NCBI GenBank assembly: GCA_011526015.1
Contig: WYBG01000418.1
Location: 1-43,891, forward strand
Reading direction: 5' to 3'
Length of the DNA stretch: 43,891 bases
Source: Deltaproteobacteria bacterium
GTDB taxonomy: Bacteria > Calditrichota > Calditrichia > RBG-13-44-9 > J075
Shown in pieces: positions 1 to 43,891 of the stretch. A program made the position numbers and the translations under genes. Each line of letters starts with the position of its first letter. Position 1 is the stretch's first letter. The notes under the pieces are model-generated. The model saw nothing but the letters and a program-made list of their open reading frames with translations. It was not told the origin of the DNA and did no database searches.

Positions 1-3
1 GCG

Positions 4-120
4 GTTTTAAAAGTTGCCACAAAGGCTCTAAGACTTGAGGGTTCACTAAAAAATGTTTAAAATTCTTGGTGAAACTTTGTGATTTAGTGGCTTCGTGGCC
101 AAAGTTTGGACTTTTAAAAC
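4..120. repeat. AT-rich module closed by an 11-bp inverted repeat (GTTTTAAAAGT 4-14 / ACTTTTAAAAC 110-120), with an inner 8-bp stem (72-79 / 100-107)
   Basis: Read directly. The region is far more AT-rich than the rest of the window. The element may be truncated by the window edge. Confidence 0.5.
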
Positions 121-159
121 AGATTCTTAGACTATTTGCCAGCAATTTCAGGCCAAACT

Positions 160-308
160 CGTTCCCATCCCGGCGTTCCGGGATGGGAACGGAATAATTC
201 CCGAAACTCTGTTTCGCTTGCCGGGAAACAAGCCGGCATTCTACGCAATTCACGCTCTCGAAACAAAGTTTCGAGTATTCGTGCGTTCCCAAACAGAGTT
301 TGGGAACG
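160..308. repeat. Cluster of five consecutive short perfect hairpins
   Basis: Stems: 160-173/178-191 (14 bp, cGTTCCCATCCCGG..CCGGGATGGGAACg); 202-207/211-216 (CGAAAC/GTTTCG); 219-224/233-238 (TGCCGG/CCGGCA); 257-264/268-275 (CTCGAAAC/GTTTCGAG); 284-294/298-308 (cGTTCCCAAAC/GTTTGGGAACg). The first and last share GTTCCCA...TGGGAAC. Confidence 0.75.
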
Positions 309-474
309 AGATTGGTAGCCGAATGTTCACCGTAATCGCTTGGGTTTACGCCTATGCGGCCATCCGGGAGGACAGGGGCTTCGTCGTGAGTTCAGCCGAA
401 CGGTGGGTGCTGCGGTTTCTTGCCAGGCTCAACCTCGGGAGTTTTCCCGGGGCTGTACCCCTTGACCCACCCCT

Positions 475-505
475 TAATTACCAATTGCCAATTACCAAAT
501 TGGGC
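475..505. repeat. CAATTG-type heptamer word array immediately downstream of the protease stop
   Basis: ttaatta ccaattg ccaatta ccaaatt ggg. This is the same word as the 10-unit array at 21023-21092. Confidence 0.6.
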
Positions 506-531
506 TGCTACATTAAATTTTTCCAACCCCC

Positions 532-3500
532 TTACCGGATCACCATAAACTTGCCCTTTTTTTCCTCTCCGTTGAACCGCGCCACGTAAATATACACCCC
601 GCTGCCGACCAGGTCGCCAACGCGGGTGCGTAAATCCCAGGCCACTCCGCCGCTTCCCGAGGTCTCTTCCAACCGCTGCAAGAACTGCCCGGATGCGCTG
701 AAAATGAAAATTTCACAGCCTTTTGGCAAATTCGCAAACATCAGATCATTATGGGCAGCCTGGCCCTTGTAAGGATTGGGATAAACCAGCACTTCCGCCA
801 GGCTTTCCGTGCTGAGGATGATCGCCAGGCGGTTGGCCCTGGTGTTATCGAGCAGAAAACCGCCCGCGTCTTTCAGGTTTTTTACGGTAAGGTAGTAGGG
901 AACCCCTAAGCTGCCCAAACGGGTGTCGCTGCTGACGGAGAGATGCACCACCCCGGCGTCGCTGCTGTCAAGCTGCGCCAGGATGATTTTCCCATCCGGC
1001 TCCAGAAAATAATTTTCCGGGTTCTGCGCGGAAGCGGTTTCCAACTCCCGGCTGAATTTCAGGCGCAGGTAGTGCTTGCCGGAGTAGCTCACGGATTGGA
1101 GATAAAAGGGTTCGCCCGCGGGCAGGTATTCAAACGAAACCAGCAGGGGCTGGCCGGGCAGCGGGGTATGTTGAAGATCGCTGAGGCCGGCCATTTCCAG
1201 GTGGTTCGCCCGGGAAGAAAATTCTTCCAAAAAAGAGAGCAGCACTTCCCGGCGGTTCTCCCCACGAATGGCGCTGGCGGGGTGTATATTTTCGTTCGAG
1301 CCGCTCAACAGGCGATAATTTTCCGTTGTAAAAGCCGCGTCAGACATCGCCTCGTTGAAGCGCAAGCGCACCTGGCGGGCGGAAAGCGCTTCCGCACCCA
1401 GGAGAACCGGCGGCGTGTTGGGCTGCGCCGATACGGGGCTGCTGAAACCGCTTTCCGGTTCCGGGAAGCTGAAATCCACCCGGGTAACGGTGTAAGTGTA
1501 GAGCGTATCGGGATGTACCAGGGAATCCGTGAACGCCGGGGATTGGGTGGAGTCGCGCAGCGTTAAAGCGCCGGACAGGCCGGTTTTGCGATAAATTTTG
1601 TAGTAATTCGCTGCGGGACTTTCCCGCCAGTCCAGGCGAATCGTGGCCGTATCCAACGGCACGGCCTGAAGCTGAAGCGGCGGAGAGGGGCGATTCTGAT
1701 CGGGGTTGGCTTCGAAGCGGAGGATTCCCGCATCGCTATTCATCAGAACCTCCGGCAGGCCGTTGCGGTCGAAATCCTCCGCCAGCGCCAGGTTGCTGTT
1801 GAGGCCCTCGCGATACCAGGCCACGGAGAATTCACCCTGGTCGAATTGCAGCACGTAAGCGTTCGGGAAGGGGGTGAAAATGATTTCGCTGCGCCCGTCG
1901 CCGTCCAAATCCGCCGCGCTAAGCCCGTTGTGGATTCCCGGCTGCACCGTTACCCCGTGCACGTTCTGCTGCCCGATCATTTCAAAGGTGTTGTTTCCGG
2001 CGGATTTCCACGCCGTCAGCGCCCAGAATTTGCTATTGACGTTGGATTCCCGCAGCACCTCCGGCAGGTTGCGCACCGCGCTGAGCAGCTCCTTCTGCCC
2101 GTCCCCGTCCAGGTCCGCGGCTTGCAGCAGGCTGTTGCCGCCCCGCCCGGGCAGCCGGGTTGACCATATAAATTGATACTGGCCGGTTGCATCTTCTTCA
2201 TAGATATAGAGATCGCCGTCGGTATCCTCCACGGCGATTTCCCGCAGGCCGTCGCCGTCGAAATCTTCCACCACCGCCCAGGGCACCCCGAACTGGTTAT
2301 TGCCGGGGGTGACCTCACCGGGCAGCATTTGCCGCAAGGTAAGCTGGTGCGCCGCGCTAACGTCAAAAATGCGCCAGCGCCCGAAATTGAGGGCCAGCAA
2401 CTCCGGTTCGGGATCATTATCCAGGTTGATCAGGCGGCTGGCCCAAAAATTGGCGGTATCCTGCCAGACCACGGCGTTGGGAAACTCCCCCGGCGCGTTG
2501 CCCCCCAACAGCAGAGACCTGGCCCCGTAGCCGCCCAACAGTTCCAGCCCCCCGGCGGGGTGAATTTTGGCGGCCTCGCGGGGGATCAGGGGAAAATCGG
2601 TCAGCTGCCGCGTCGCCCACTGGCCGTCGAGATATTCCCAGGCTTGCAGGGGGCCGAATTTGCTCCCATCGATCAATTCCGAGATCACGAACTCCCGGCG
2701 CTGGTTTTCATTGAAATCCGTGCCGAAGGGCATGAAAAAGCCGCTTACCGGCAGTTGCTCTTTTTCGGATAACAGGGTTTGCGGCGGGAGGGCCTCGGGA
2801 AGATTCAAGGGGTAGTATTGCCCCTCGTTGTCATAAATCGCCTCCAGGCCCGCGGAATTGCGCAGGTGCAGGTAAAACTCGATGGCGCCGCTAATGTCTT
2901 CCTGGGAGAGGATGAAATTGTGCTCGTCCTGAAAATATTGGGAGATTTTGGAAAAGAAAGGTTGCGTATTGCGTATTGCGTATTCCGTATGGAGGATTGG
3001 CTGAGAGTGTTGGGAGCTTTTCGATAAAGTAAATGTACGCTCGCCGGCGCGGCGGTAAAAGAGGGTGGCGACGGTGGGGTCGTCGGTTTGAAAGCGGACC
3101 AGGAAGCCGTTTTGCGGGCCGATCAGCATCGCCGTGCTATGGAGCTGGCTGGGAACCGGGGGCGTGTGGTCGATAGCAAAGATAGTTTTATAGACCATGT
3201 CGCTCAACCCGTGCTGTTTGAGGCGCAACTCCAGGGTGTAGGTGGTGTCGGGCAGGGCGGCAAGATTCCAAACCGTTAGAGTATCTTGCAGCGCCTGCAC
3301 GCCGAAGACTTCCGTGATGGGGGTCCAGTGGAAGGGATTCTCGCCGGTTCCGTAGGCCAGGGCGTAAGAAATCAGCCGGGGACCAAAAACCGTTCCGGTG
3401 ACGGCGATCTCATCCGCCGCAGTGCCGCTGCCGGTGGCCGGCGCGGTAATCTCCGCGTAGCCCTGCTCTCCGATGGTCAGGCTGCGTTGCAAATCCACCA

Positions 3501-42551: not shown

Positions 42552-42665
42552 CAACAGGGCTGCCGACGCCGGTGGCGAGGTAAAGGATTCTTCGCCGCCG
42601 GACAGACGCCCCTCCGATCGTTTCATTAAAACGCCCCTCTCCCCTCCCCATTTCTTTAAAATCTC

Positions 42666-42694
42666 TTGAAGTTCTCCCCTTCACCGCCTATATT
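42666..42694 (+). promoter_or_regulatory. Candidate sigma70-type promoter of the MTH1187-like gene
   Basis: TTGAAG-17 nt-TATATT. The -10 element overlaps the inverted repeat ATTCAC agc GTGAAT (42692-42706). Confidence 0.5.
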
Positions 42695-42743
42695 CACAGC
42701 GTGAATTTATGTTCACTAACTTAAACGGAGGAGGCTTCAGGCC

Positions 42744-43046
42744 ATGAAAGTCATTGCCGATGTTTCGCTGGTGCCATTAGGAGTGGGGATTTCGCTTTCC
42801 AAATACATTGCCGCGTGCGAGCGGGTCTTTCGGGAGGCAGGGCTGAAAATCAACCTTCACGCGTACGGAACCAACGTAGAGGGCGAGTGGGAAGCTGTGA
42901 TGGCGGCGATCAAACGCTGCCACGAGGTGGTGCACGAGATGGGCGCGCCGCGCATCTCCACCAACATCCGCCTGGGGACCCGCACCGACCGGCAGCAGAG
43001 TATGGAAGACAAGGTGCAAAGCGTGCGGGAGAAGTTAGGAGAATGA
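42744..43046 (+). CDS. MTH1187/YkoF-like (UPF0045, thiamine-binding-type) small protein
   Basis: 100 aa. MKVIADVSLVPLGVG.S.SKYIA and HAYGTNVEGEW...V are characteristic of the family. GGAGGAGG RBS. Confidence 0.7.
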   Translation: MKVIADVSLVPLGVGISLSKYIAACERVFREAGLKINLHAYGTNVEGEWEAVMAAIKRCHEVVHEMGAPRISTNIRLGTRTDRQQSMEDKVQSVREKLGE

Positions 43047-43063
43047 TTGCGGGCGGCAGGTTC

Positions 43064-43134
43064 GGATTGTTGGAGTAATGGATTAGTGGAGTGGTGGAGC
43101 ACTGGATCACTGGATTATTGGAGCGATGGGTTAT
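43064..43134 (+). repeat. Octamer-phased GGA array (eight GGA motifs exactly 8 nt apart)
   Basis: (c)ggattgt tggagtaa tggattag tggagtgg tggagcac tggatcac tggattat tggagcga tgggttat. GGA occurs at 43064, 72, 80, 88, 96, 104, 112 and 120. There is no complementary arm nearby. Confidence 0.8.
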
Positions 43135-43304
43135 TCGTGAGTCGGATTTTGAATTTTGATGCCCGGCGCCCGGCACCGGAAGCCGGAATTTCATATTATC
43201 TTCGTGCCCGGCGTTCCGGCAAATGCTATATTGCGCCCCTTCCGATTGGGGAAGCGTTTTGAACGGCAACGAGGTGGATAAAAGCAAATCAAATAAAAAC
43301 CGCT

Positions 43305-43891
43305 ATGACCAAGAAAGAATATCTGATTGTTAAAGGGGCCCGGGAGCATAATCTCAAGAATATCGACGTGTATATTCCCCGGGAAAAATTTGTAGTAATT
43401 ACCGGCCTTTCCGGCTCCGGGAAATCCAGCCTGGCGTTCGATACCATCTACGCCGAGGGGCAGCGCCGCTACGTGGAATCCCTGAGCGCCTACGCCCGCC
43501 AGTTTTTGGGATTGATGGAGAAACCGGAGGTGGATTACATCGACGGCCTCTCCCCCGCCATCTCCATCGAGCAAAAAACCACCCATAAAAATCCGCGCTC
43601 CACGGTGGGCACGGTAACGGAAATTTACGACTACCTGCGCCTGCTGTTTGCCCGCATCGGCAAGCCCCATTGCTATAACTGCGGCGACCCCATCACCCGC
43701 CAGACTCCCCAGCAGATAGTGGATACCTTCCTGGAATTGCCGGAGGGCAGCCGGGTGCAAATTCTCGCCCCGGTGGTGCGGGGCCGCAAGGGCGAGTATA
43801 AAGAATTATTCGAGGAGATCAAGCGGGAAGGATTTTTACGAGTGCGGGTGGACGGTGAGATGCGCAGCCTCGACGAAGAGATCGACCTCAA
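43305..43891 (+). CDS. uvrA: Excinuclease ABC subunit A (UvrA), N-terminal 195 codons, runs off the window
   Basis: My own translation from ATG 43305: [69 protein letters not shown]...CYNCGDPI. It is not in the supplied ORF track because it has no stop in the window. The two minus-strand ORFs listed here are shadows. Confidence 0.95.

Follow-up and report, generated by a model that had tools for sequence, protein, structure and literature searches.

The window, a 43,891-nt stretch of DNA that was analysed as a whole, comes from a Calditrichota bacterium. In this piece, roughly two in three gene ends are followed by tandem repeats of 7, or sometimes 8, bases, which change rapidly and mostly fold into long hairpins. 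The arrays and the genes that they accompany are given below, with z denoting folding stability relative to shuffled sequence.

475-505, no strand assigned: AATTRCC, three to four units, about 30 nt past the stop (532) of an S8 peptidase gene on the minus strand; word family common to 21019-21100 (family D4).
2962-2990, no strand assigned: TTGCGTA, four units (family D3), within the 1437-aa ORF of the S8 peptidase, in the S8/FG-GAP domain linker (Tandem Repeats Finder, period scan, Pfam).
8566-8680, plus strand: period-8 CCGGNGAA, four units, 5 nt past the proline dehydrogenase stop (8561), the inverted arm (TTCACCGG...CCCCGGTTC) being degenerate and the folding marginal.
9594-9690, no strand assigned: convergent spacer, GGATRCC-type units against 4.4 units of ATCCGGG, the second arm lying over the stop at 9667; Tandem Repeats Finder arrays 9613-9634 and 9652-9682; z -3.8, with 0 of 200 shuffles equally stable.
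17153-17181, plus strand: short TTTTCGA/TTGGTGA array about 96 nt past the serpin gene, without an inverted partner.
19745-19870, plus strand: hairpin between the SnoaL gene, which it follows, and the true start of the BamB-like gene, left arm GCGCAGA/GCGCATA/GGGCAGA, right arm nine units of GCNCNNT; z -2.9.
21019-21100, no strand assigned: phoU/BamB-like convergent spacer, filled by nine to ten units of self-complementary CAATTGN; inverted repeats I16/I22; z -3.8.
21795-21962, minus strand: pstB-phoU spacer array, at least 17 NCGNNNT units (TACGYAW family) in two adjacent hairpins, beginning directly after the pstB stop (21963); inverted repeats I1/I4/I10; z -6.3.
22825-22913, minus strand: pstA-pstB spacer array, 11 TACGYAW-family units in a hairpin whose core is a perfect 13 bp, ending at the pstA stop (22910); inverted repeats I5/I6/I18; z -4.8.
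24570-24718, minus strand: pstC-pstA spacer array, GCGCATAG/CTATGCGC-family arms enclosing a loop of some 45 nt, with the right one adjoining the pstC stop (24716); inverted repeats I2/I25; z -3.4.
26970-27064, minus strand: pstS-pstC spacer array, period-8 arms GATTGATG/CATCCATC in a near-perfect hairpin of about 25 bp, adjoining the pstS stop (27065); inverted repeats I13/I14; z -7.3.
28181-28216, minus strand: array at the 3' end of the porin O/P gene, four to five units of TCNTCAA over the stop at 28214; single arm, no fold.
31390-31480, plus strand: hairpin after the M28 peptidase gene, period 8/16, GGAGAATG/GGAGAAAC against TCTCCGTT; I8/I17; part of a 117-nt direct repeat (D5); z -6.8.
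32380-32470, no strand assigned: convergent spacer of the pstS-like gene, holding a second copy (90% identical) of the 31390-31480 hairpin; I11/I19; z -11.5 for the spacer.
35700-35840, no strand assigned: two glycosyltransferase genes converging on a spacer with GGCAGGN and CCTGCCN arrays of period 6-7/13, which extend into both ORF 3' ends and cover both stops (35715, 35784); I3/I21/I23; z -6.0.
36990-37051, minus strand: RsmB-glycosyltransferase spacer, four to five units of CCTTATA against GGGTATAGGG; 12-bp stem; z -2.3.
38515-38675, minus strand: Usp-RsmB spacer, TACGYAW-family arms flanking a pure block of seven GTATTTC units and covering the Usp stop (38658); I7; z -3.1.
42003-42129, no strand assigned: two period-9 mini-arrays, CCACAGARA and CTCTGTGCN, the arms of a 183-nt MITE-like element (41975-42157); z -8.3 for the spacer.
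43060-43188, no strand assigned: convergent spacer, 6.6 units of period-8 TGGAGNNN in a single arm with no fold, and a short period-7 segment at 43161-43188.

Our own period scan of the 43.9 kb (21-nt windows, self-match of at least 76%) returned 15 period-7 and six period-8 segments, against no period-7 segment in 30 dinucleotide shuffles and a mean of 0.07 for period 8. The remaining periods yielded zero to two segments each, except for period 14, whose nine segments are a harmonic, two units long, of the heptamer arrays. An earlier note, made from the letters of the window, had proposed that phase-locked arrays, mostly of 7-nt units, form a class present throughout the window, to be tested against shuffled sequence, and the scan bears this out. 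Tandem Repeats Finder likewise reports arrays at essentially every position named there: 21835-21954 (period 7, about 15-17 units), 22832-22910, 38536-38669, 19811-19867, 24677-24715, 21025-21085, 476-498, 37012-37041, 28183-28210 and 35718-35740/35773-35827, together with 43071-43123 and 26987-27005 at period 8 and 42003-42028 and 42103-42125 at period 9. Direct reading of 21838-21956 recovers the 17 NCGNNNT units that had been counted, with a terminal T in 17 of 17 and CG at positions 2-3 in 16. As had also been described, the words differ from locus to locus, and a small number of families recur (D1-D4); TACGYAW-family words occur at four loci.

The provisional ORF map places 18 of the 21 segments (12 of 15 at period 7 and all six at period 8) in intergenic DNA, although this accounts for just 13.6% of the window. 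Among the three assigned to coding sequence, 19827-19867 precedes a corrected start and 9650-9684 overlaps a stop codon; the array within the S8 peptidase ORF is the only one inside a coding region. Six of the seven convergent spacers contain arrays, as against none of the six divergent ones (hypergeometric probability 7/1716 = 0.004), and all seven stop codons that the earlier note listed as overlapped or abutted (9667, 22910, 24716, 28214, 35715, 35784 and 38658) are so, which agrees with its placement of the arrays at gene 3' ends. Its count of two classical terminators also stands: the 44 kb hold only two U-tract hairpins of good quality. Classical U-tract terminators are nearly absent from the window.

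Ten of the 14 loci that were folded gave z values of -2.9 or lower (range -2.9 to -7.3), and at least 10 of the 15 period-7 arrays possess an inverted partner or are self-complementary. The left arm at 19750-19775 can pair with the right arm in three registers spaced by 7 nt (I9/I12/I15). The inverted arms and multi-register stems claimed previously are found at most loci, but three of the 14 fold no better than shuffles (28150-28216, z +1.1; 43060-43135, z -0.8; 8562-8680, z -1.1); three arrays are without a second arm. Neither wobble-pair counts nor strand-specific folding energies revealed a preference for the transcribed strand among the window arrays: of the stem mismatches, five would form G-U wobbles in the sense and 11 in the antisense orientation, beside 33 others, and sense-strand folds have no systematic stability gain over antisense folds. 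These two measures gave no sign of RNA-level selection. A role of the arrays as 3' hairpins is plausible.

Six Logan assemblies from independent runs reproduce the four pst-operon arrays at 99.5-100% identity, the pstA-pstB array being identical in them, while a 14-nt (two-unit) difference occurs at 24673-24686 in three of the six contigs, from strains that are 99.5-99.7% identical across that stretch. An assembly or chimera artefact, which the earlier note had wished to see excluded, might be suspected from the fact that these short-read assemblies break at the longest array (all six contigs terminate within pstB-phoU). It is, however, effectively refuted by the base-for-base recovery of the four arrays in six independent assemblies and by homologous arrays in related species.

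Relatives at about 90% DNA identity carry, in the same spacers, other words, other unit numbers or no array. At pstB-phoU, TACGNNN arrays take up 191 nt in the window, whereas its relative L206 has 124 nt of inverted AGTTTNG/CNAAACT arrays; on either side the two sequences scarcely differ, as far as the TAA stop on one and starting about 10 nt ahead of the phoU ATG on the other. The L206 ortholog of 19745-19870 keeps the left arm, while its right arm is 35 nt (five units) shorter, and the array of 21019-21100 is absent from the orthologous phoU/BamB-like spacer of L206. In the 35700-35840 spacer, unit number varies among L292, L296 and the window, with an ORF tail of 401 versus 390 aa. The pure block of Usp-RsmB is missing in L292-L296, where the RsmB-proximal arm is conserved, and the RsmB-glycosyltransferase spacer of relatives (RsmB 98% identical) is unrelated, 45 nt long and array-free. 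The arms vary independently. The comparison of orthologous spacers that the earlier note had proposed finds word replacement at pstB-phoU and gain or loss of arrays in two other spacers, and these alignments indicate that array turnover outpaces the flanking sequence. A relative with a 72% identical PhoU has no arrays in 20 kb, and its pst spacers carry ordinary stem-loops. The spacers of relatives lacking arrays are unalignable with those of the window.

Loci of other genomes that were chosen for one TACG-type heptamer array held 312 period-7 and 40 period-8 arrays in 854 kb, compared to 22 and seven in 1.65 Mb of unselected loci, which makes richness in arrays a genome-level property. The selected loci share the same spectrum (7 far above 8, and 8 above the rest), and the same architecture of many heptamer words per locus, often in inverted pairs, occurs in Chloroflexota, Anaerolineae, Nostocaceae, Desulfococcaceae and another Calditrichota genome. 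In other phyla, arrays per kb amount to 2.3 in tandem, 2.0 in convergent and 0.67 in divergent spacers, and the median distance is 28 nt from a stop versus 65 nt from a start. Hairpins are formed by about a quarter of the arrays there, as against two thirds in the window. The word TACGAAT recurs across phyla in 30 of 119 selected loci.

The earlier note knew of no described class with such features. This claim does not hold, since the STRR of filamentous cyanobacteria are 7-bp intergenic repeats with hairpins reported between genes, e.g. hupS-hupL, near the 3' end of the preceding gene, their function being unknown (PMC2670836). Cyanobacteria, Xanthomonas and Beggiatoaceae are documented carriers of intergenic heptamer repeats (STRR, heptameric long SSRs), and in many bacteria heptamers dominate among the long simple sequence repeats (Mrazek 2007, summarised in PMC4679880; PMC4692102). 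Across 7,006 prokaryotic genomes, tandem heptamers were ubiquitous and the most abundant intergenic repeat, with no functional clue (10.1101/309039). The window arrays are a dense new example of these known, unexplained repeats, not a new kind of element.

We consider it reasonably probable that the arrays are STRR-type heptameric SSRs which grow stepwise behind stop codons and probably have an at least passive role as 3'-end or intercistronic hairpins. The genome would have a tendency towards tandem duplication and deletion preferentially in 7-nt and more rarely in 8-nt steps; polymerase slippage has been proposed for heptamer SSRs, as a hypothesis only (PMC4679880; PMC4692102). Arrays would be seeded locally, often in both arms of a stem-loop pre-existing behind a stop codon, and each locus would therefore have its own word, with complementary words in the two arms. 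Slipped-strand mispairing, favoured by hairpin-prone or palindromic cores (TACGTA, CAATTG, GCGC, CCGG), may then add or remove whole units independently in each arm. Selection would limit growth at the stop codon, or slightly within a dispensable C-terminal tail, and on the other side where the ribosome-binding site or promoter of the following gene lies. Hairpins formed in this way, long, imperfect and multi-register, would take the place of the ordinary stem-loops of array-poor relatives and probably act, at least passively, in attenuation or REP-like protection of mRNA 3' ends, the word itself not being under selection.

Several observations sit uneasily with this. Nothing in slippage explains why the step is 7 nt, the published idea of a polymerase footprint being itself a hypothesis, and pure local seeding does not predict TACGYAW at four loci or TACGAAT across phyla. 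The stable hairpin between pstA and pstB would be awkward as a strong terminator; the array-free relative has only 13 nt there. The three non-folding arrays and the absent RNA-level signature also count against it.

Alternatively, and this we regard as possible, the arrays are neutral debris, functionless by-products of a lineage-specific replication or repair bias that persist where harmless; inverted arms might then arise since palindromic or hairpin-prone seeds slip more often. Quick gain, loss and word replacement among relatives of about 90% identity, polymorphism within the population, an on/off trait between related lineages, single-arm arrays that do not fold and the absent sense-strand wobble bias are all consistent with this, as are arrays that fill the exact space from stop to ribosome-binding site and spill into ORF tails. 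Debris accounts less well for the high hairpin-forming share in the window, for arrays in all convergent spacers but one, for their location where relatives have ordinary stem-loops and for the near absence of U-tract terminators, given which something else must define 3' ends. In a reading that the earlier note implies, U-tract intrinsic terminators would have been replaced in this lineage by a specialised class of terminator hairpins under selection, with several registers and a periodicity that is itself functional in letting the stem slip between them. Stop-abutting positions in convergent but not divergent spacers, strong folding, multiple registers and the mere two U-tract hairpins suit such a class. 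We nevertheless find it unlikely: the arrays have no U-tracts and no sense-strand bias, part of them do not fold, they stand between normally co-expressed genes of the pst operon (pstA-pstB, pstC-pstA), orthologous spacers of close relatives can be array-free, and the heptamer bias occurs in many phyla regardless of hairpin formation.

It is improbable that the arrays serve to bind a protein whose footprint is about 7 nt, be it a cold-shock-domain protein on single-stranded RNA or DNA (one per heptamer) or a nucleoid-associated protein. The fixed phase and the conserved positions within degenerate units (NCGNNNT, 16 of 17) would fit; CspB binds heptamer direct repeats according to MacGregor (PMC4679880), and work on Nostoc deduces that a partner, as yet unidentified, binds the heptamers (10.1101/2022.06.06.494920). 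The words, however, differ wholly among loci and orthologous spacers, so that no single sequence-specific protein fits, period-8 arrays stand alongside those of period 7, and the window encodes no obvious candidate binder. Mobile or dispersed elements (REP/REPIN, BIME, ERIC or MITE type) or a CRISPR-like array are more doubtful still. Families D1-D4 do recur kilobases apart, but the copies are alike only via their common word (60-86% identity), with neither defined ends nor target duplications; the conserved REP head motif and unique spacers between repeats are absent, the window has no Rfam match at curated gathering thresholds, and no transposase or RAYT gene is found among the proteins scanned against Pfam. 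What speaks for mobility is the duplicated 117-nt segment (D5, 90% identity) and the one spacer with a genuine MITE-like element (41975-42157), which is probably a separate kind of element.

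Tandem Repeats Finder (TRF) analysis recovered short-period arrays at practically all of the loci where the earlier note had read them directly from the sequence. At 21838-21956, direct reading gives 17 consecutive NCGNNNT units, in which position 7 is T in 17 of 17 and positions 2-3 are CG in 16 of 17. A self-match scan, in which 21-nt windows had to show ≥76% identity to the sequence one period off, revealed 15 period-7 and six period-8 segments, against means of 0 and 0.07, respectively, in 30 dinucleotide-preserving shuffles. Other periods yielded 0-2 segments each, save for the period-14 harmonic, and a stricter scan (35-nt window, 80% self-match), the threshold of which was too strict, detected only three arrays. 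Approximately ten words (the unit sequences of the arrays) occur within 44 kb, with three families recurring, as counted in this one window.

The arrays are not assembly artefacts. Six Logan assemblies, derived from other sequencing runs, are 99.5-100% identical across the pst operon and reproduce four arrays base for base. All six Logan contigs break off within the longest array, at window position 21865, and in three of the six, 14 nt (exactly two units) are missing from the array at 24673-24686. As a practical point, short-read assemblies break at these arrays. The long TACG arrays at 21808-21954 and 22825-22927 (direct-repeat families D1/D2), inside which TTACGCA alternates with TTACGTT, have a best self-match spacing of 14 nt, not 7. 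Given this spacing and the 14-nt strain polymorphism, two-unit steps may be the usual event.

On a provisional ORF map, 18 of the 21 scanned segments are intergenic (12/15 period-7 and 6/6 period-8), while only 13.6% of the window is. Among the three called coding, 19827-19867 lies upstream of a corrected start and 9650-9684 overlaps a stop codon, so that 2962-2990 is the only array truly within an ORF. The arrays abut or overlap stop codons at 9667, 22910, 24716, 28214, 35715, 35784 and 38658, as had been claimed, and by our count ~22 of 31 gene 3' ends carry one. Arrays are present in six of seven convergent spacers and in none of the six divergent (promoter-only) spacers, for which we calculate a hypergeometric probability of 7/1716 (~0.004).

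Pfam scans indicate that the window is an ordinary chromosomal segment, encoding peptidases, proline dehydrogenase, an MFS transporter, a serpin, rsmB, usp, glycosyltransferases and an OPT transporter, together with a complete phosphate operon on the minus strand (porin O/P, pstS, pstC, pstA, pstB, phoU), all spacers of which contain arrays. The array at 2962-2990 consists of 28 nt (TTGCGTA x4) in the inter-domain linker of a 1437-aa S8 peptidase / FG-GAP ORF, where the word family of the intergenic arrays is tolerated in coding sequence. The arrays also mislead gene calling and ORF listing: the mechanical ORF of the BamB-like gene begins at an ATG within the array (window 19813-19903), giving 401 aa versus 371 aa in L206, a Calditrichota relative at ~90% nucleotide identity. 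Likewise, in close relatives (L292-L296; window 38474-38590) the called RsmB protein has 512 aa rather than 473 aa, its ORF extending upstream through an array.

The arrays had also been proposed to form hairpins, and this holds for most of them. When the sense strand was folded against 200 shuffles, 10 of 14 loci gave z-scores of -2.9 to -7.3, with 0-3 of the 200 shuffles being as stable; three loci failed. The pstS-pstC spacer (-41.5 kcal/mol, z -7.3) and the pstB-phoU spacer (-49.2 kcal/mol, z -6.3) fold strongly, while the single-armed arrays at 28150-28216 and 43060-43135 show no folding, and that at 8562-8680 is marginal. Inverted-repeat detection confirms the alternative registers described in the earlier note, spaced 7 nt apart. 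Palindromic cores (TACGTA, CAATTG, GGATCC, GCGC, CCGG) are frequent in this small sample. Random windows from the same locus served as the control for inverted partners, since many words are mirror-symmetric and a reversed-only or complement-only sequence is therefore not a valid one. At curated gathering thresholds, no part of the window matches any Rfam family, and a tRNA/tmRNA scan found none in it.

PstA, PhoU and RsmB have their closest homologues in Calditrichota (Calditrichia/Calditrichaeota) MAGs. A metagenome scan with PstA gave a best match no closer than 65% identity, and close relatives were obtained solely through exact-protein look-ups. These relatives, at ~90% nucleotide identity (PhoU 95% and RsmB 98% at the protein level), were compared with the window spacer by spacer. 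At pstB-phoU, only one of the 68 terminal nucleotides of pstB, stop codon included, differs from L206, and the two sequences agree again from ~10 nt before the phoU ATG; between these points lie 191 nt of TACGNNN arrays in the window and 124 nt of AGTTTNG/CNAAACT inverted arrays in L206. L206 lacks the (CAATTGN)x10 array found in the convergent spacer between phoU and the BamB-like gene, the CCTTATA hairpin of the RsmB-glycosyltransferase spacer is missing from the relative, and the Usp-RsmB spacer shows the gain of a pure (GTATTTC)x7 block. In the hairpin upstream of the BamB-like gene, the left arm is kept and the right arm of the window is five units (35 nt) longer than that of L206. Furthermore, the GGCAGGN arrays between two glycosyltransferase genes vary in unit number among strains and run into both ORF tails (401 versus 390 aa). 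The arrays thus change far more rapidly than the DNA on either side of them.

The trait is itself confined. No array occurs in 20 kb of a relative of 47% GC whose PhoU is 72% identical, and its pst spacers hold plain stem-loops; a relative whose RsmB is 79% identical has no period-7 array in 20 kb. It is therefore the trait of a sub-lineage.

The earlier note interpreted the arrays as an undescribed class. What stands of this interpretation is that they are real, locus-worded, stop-abutting and mostly hairpin-forming; the claim that no described class accommodates them fails, because STRR, long heptameric SSRs and the Xanthomonas/Nostoc repeats have already been published. STRR are 7-bp tandem repeats of filamentous cyanobacteria, reported to form a hairpin loop and with no known function, which lie in the hupS-hupL spacer of several genera and near the 3' end of the preceding gene, and for which roles in transcript stability or termination were proposed (PMC2670836). 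Their first description is credited to Mazel et al. 1990 by PMC4692102 and PMC2670836. As summarised in PMC4679880, Mrazek, Guo & Shah (2007) found heptanucleotides to be the most abundant long-SSR class in most SSR-rich genomes and proposed polymerase slippage. LSSR, as outlined in PMC4679880 and 10.1101/309039, have units of 5-11 nt and are longer than chance, heptamer-dominated, non-coding and phylogenetically sporadic. The SPADE survey of 7,006 genomes reported tandem heptamers as the most abundant intergenic repeat across a broad span of prokaryotes, without a clear clue to function (10.1101/309039). Rehm et al. (2015) described intergenic heptamers of 2-26 units, GGGAATC in Xanthomonas and GGGGAYT in Nostoc PCC 7120, some in inverted pairs able to make stem-loops or cruciforms, the length and sequence of which vary strongly in the same spacers of sister species (PMC4692102). 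Finally, MacGregor (2015) reported TAACTGA direct repeats in marine Beggiatoaceae, some cyanobacteria and Bacteroidetes, with a patchy distribution and no known mechanism (PMC4679880).

The window arrays agree with STRR and heptameric SSRs in these respects: by TRF and shuffles, they are head-to-tail 7-nt units longer than chance; they are non-coding; and they vary in unit number, as seen in the 14-nt strain indel and in the 35-nt and other unit-wise differences from relatives. Like STRR, they lie in intergenic and intra-operon positions and are mostly predicted to form hairpins; several words occur within the window, and loci of Nostoc and Dolichospermum (L159, L178) present the same multi-word picture. 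However, the units are more degenerate in the window, and the host is not the heterocystous/filamentous cyanobacterium of the original STRR description, its closest proteins being those of Calditrichia/Calditrichaeota. Since the host is not cyanobacterial, we file the window arrays as heptameric SSRs that are STRR-like, not as strict STRR.

Like LSSR, the window arrays are heptamer-dominated, non-coding and longer than chance, although the LSSR and SPADE surveys dealt with direct repeats and did not stress the inverted-arm, stop-abutting layout or the near-saturated 3' spacers of the window. The Xanthomonas/Nostoc heptamers are similarly intergenic, partly in inverted pairs and fast-changing in length and sequence at the same spacers; in those, one G-rich word dominates and a G-quadruplex was proposed, whereas the window has many non-G-rich words and predicted Watson-Crick hairpins. 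TAACTGA repeats are likewise intergenic and patchy, yet they consist of a single word, mostly direct (with one inverted case), just upstream of start codons, in contrast to the many words just downstream of stops in the window. The arrays are STRR-like heptameric SSRs, a kind already known but unexplained, found here at unusual density and in a phylum new to it.

Several other classes were considered and rejected. REPs are dispersed copies, in large number, of one 20-40-bp consensus, an imperfect palindrome with a conserved head (GTAG/CGTC), and are mobilised by associated RAYT transposases. The window arrays, unlike these, are internally periodic and without sign of mobility, their loci share no consensus beyond the word, and no RAYT-like gene occurs among the proteins scanned; REP, REPIN and BIME were therefore discarded. 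The likeness is confined to possible working, that of palindromes at gene 3' ends and between cistrons, which in enterobacteria and pseudomonads are proposed to stabilise the mRNA upstream or act in transcriptional attenuation, according to PMC3733652.

The arrays lack defined ends and duplications and are not MITEs, which have defined terminal inverted repeats, a target-site duplication and multiple copies; only 41975-42157, a separate element, has MITE-like ends. CRISPR, with its 23-55-nt direct repeats parted by unique spacers of similar length, does not fit contiguous units of 6-9 nt that match no Rfam family at curated gathering thresholds. Contingency-locus SSRs of phase variation sit within an ORF or between promoter elements, where unit changes switch the gene; they were rejected as the arrays follow the stops of housekeeping genes (pst operon, rsmB, usp) and are absent from the six divergent spacers. 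Intrinsic (Rho-independent) terminators consist of a GC-rich stem-loop with a U-tract right behind it on the transcribed strand, and the array hairpins are without T-runs. A consensus terminator scan returned 37 matches versus 28.4 and 39 versus 29.6 in shuffles, and such terminator/promoter scans do not discriminate because the counts are near those of shuffles both in the window and in an array-free relative; the pst operon's antisense strand supplies all of the array-derived matches.

Six TACG cores in phase, used as a search pattern, match more than 119 loci in many phyla, with TACGAAT as the commonest word (30 of 119 loci). The loci selected in this way contain 312 period-7 and 40 period-8 arrays in 854 kb; pst loci taken without such selection contain 22 and 7 in 1.65 Mb. 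Within 8 kb, many of the selected loci combine several words, often in inverted pairs, for example:

L183, Chloroflexaceae, multi-word (27 arrays)
L195, Chloroflexota, multi-word
L092, Anaerolineales, multi-word
L159, Nostoc, multi-word
L169, Calditrichota, multi-word

In the selected set, arrays per kb are three times rarer in divergent than in convergent or tandem spacers, and they lie closer to stops than to starts. The inverted-arm share is larger in the window, where at least 10 of 15 arrays have an inverted partner or are self-complementary, compared with about one quarter in the other phyla. No rule for word choice emerged, the TACG-core arrays being diverse at the other three bases. 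The richest loci (L183, L195, L092, L108, L159, L178, L089, L196, L102) are largely from Chloroflexaceae, Anaerolineae, Nostocaceae, Desulfonema-like HSG isolates and Saprospiraceae, groups whose cultured members are known as filamentous or multicellular. The literature adds Beggiatoaceae as a further lineage of this sort. Our impression, from a pattern-selected sample, is that array richness lies largely in filamentous or multicellular lineages.

The simplest account of these data is unit-wise slipped-strand change, with a strong 7-nt and a weaker 8-nt preference, on hairpin-prone DNA behind stops. A stem-loop behind a stop codon would act as the seed and a 7-mer would expand independently in each arm, which would yield complementary words in the two arms. 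Such a history would account for the word peculiar to each locus, the inverted arms, the imperfect pairing within a given register and the independent arm lengths. Growth would continue up to the stop codon and the ribosome-binding site of the next gene, and the sharp array boundaries would be due to its reaching them. From their position and stability, it is plausible that the arrays act as 3'-end or intercistronic RNA hairpins, in attenuation or 3' protection as for REP elements, and the scarcity of U-tract terminators in the window fits such a role. A purely neutral origin of the arrays is a serious rival. Sense and antisense fold energies of the window spacers show no consistent order, and eight oriented stems gave 5 sense-strand G-U mismatches versus 11 antisense and 33 other, the lack of a sense-strand bias in so small a sample being absence of evidence only.

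Other readings are less likely, namely that the arrays are dedicated multi-register terminators, platforms for protein binding, mobile elements or artefacts. As for dispersed elements, an idea we rejected, the direct-repeat families between loci are united by the shared word alone. We also think it improbable that the arrays, instead of being passive products of slippage, are the output of a specific 7-nt-step process that continually rebuilds gene-end hairpins, the multi-register stems replacing U-tract terminators. Such a process might be a hairpin-stimulated template-switch or repair tied to a replisome or repair component, and would be common to Nostocaceae, Chloroflexota, Anaerolineae, Desulfonema-like bacteria, Beggiatoaceae and this Calditrichota clade. 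If it were true, this organism would be a good system for the 35-year-old heptamer-repeat puzzle, since about two-thirds of its gene 3' ends have an array and close strains and species are present in public metagenomes.

The window adds a new phylum and an unusually dense case to repeats seen since 1990, the origin (why 7?) and function of which are unexplained. The comparative evidence added comprises whole-unit change within a population, two hairpin arms changing independently, one spacer where the word has been fully exchanged, precisely between the stop codon and the ribosome-binding site of the following gene, and presence or absence of the trait among related lineages. These contrasts make two questions testable, namely whether transcripts end at arrays and which genes of replication or repair vary in step with the trait. 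The value lies less in any new category, which the arrays do not form, than in the comparative handles that this lineage offers on a long-standing question.

Other features were observed beside the arrays. In L206, the BamB-like gene adjoins the DUF4442/NMO genes, the serpin-to-SnoaL block (~15.8-19.7 kb of the window) is missing, and an additional GSDH gene lies between NMO and the MFS transporter (compared with window 13936-19812). The long "spacer" at 4846-6135 contains two small overlapping ORFs (5429-5931), the first for a DUF4258 protein (E 6e-14) and the second for an MqsA-like zinc-ribbon antitoxin (E 3.5e-6, which does not reach Pfam's cut-off), which make up a putative toxin-antitoxin pair. 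The MITE-like element at 41975-42157 (183 nt), whose terminal inverted repeats are CTGATGTTACGC / GCGTAACATCAG, has TAAATAA on either side (41968-41974, 42159-42165) and directly follows a classical hairpin + T7 terminator (41915-41968); its arms are partly made of period-9 mini-arrays, and its spacer folds with z -8.3. Finally, a 117-nt direct repeat (family D5; 31361-31477 and 32351-32467, 90% identical), each copy with a period-8 hairpin, brackets a second, pstS-like phosphate-binding protein gene (31496-32341), and may have arisen by duplication of a 3' element or been left behind when a gene was inserted.
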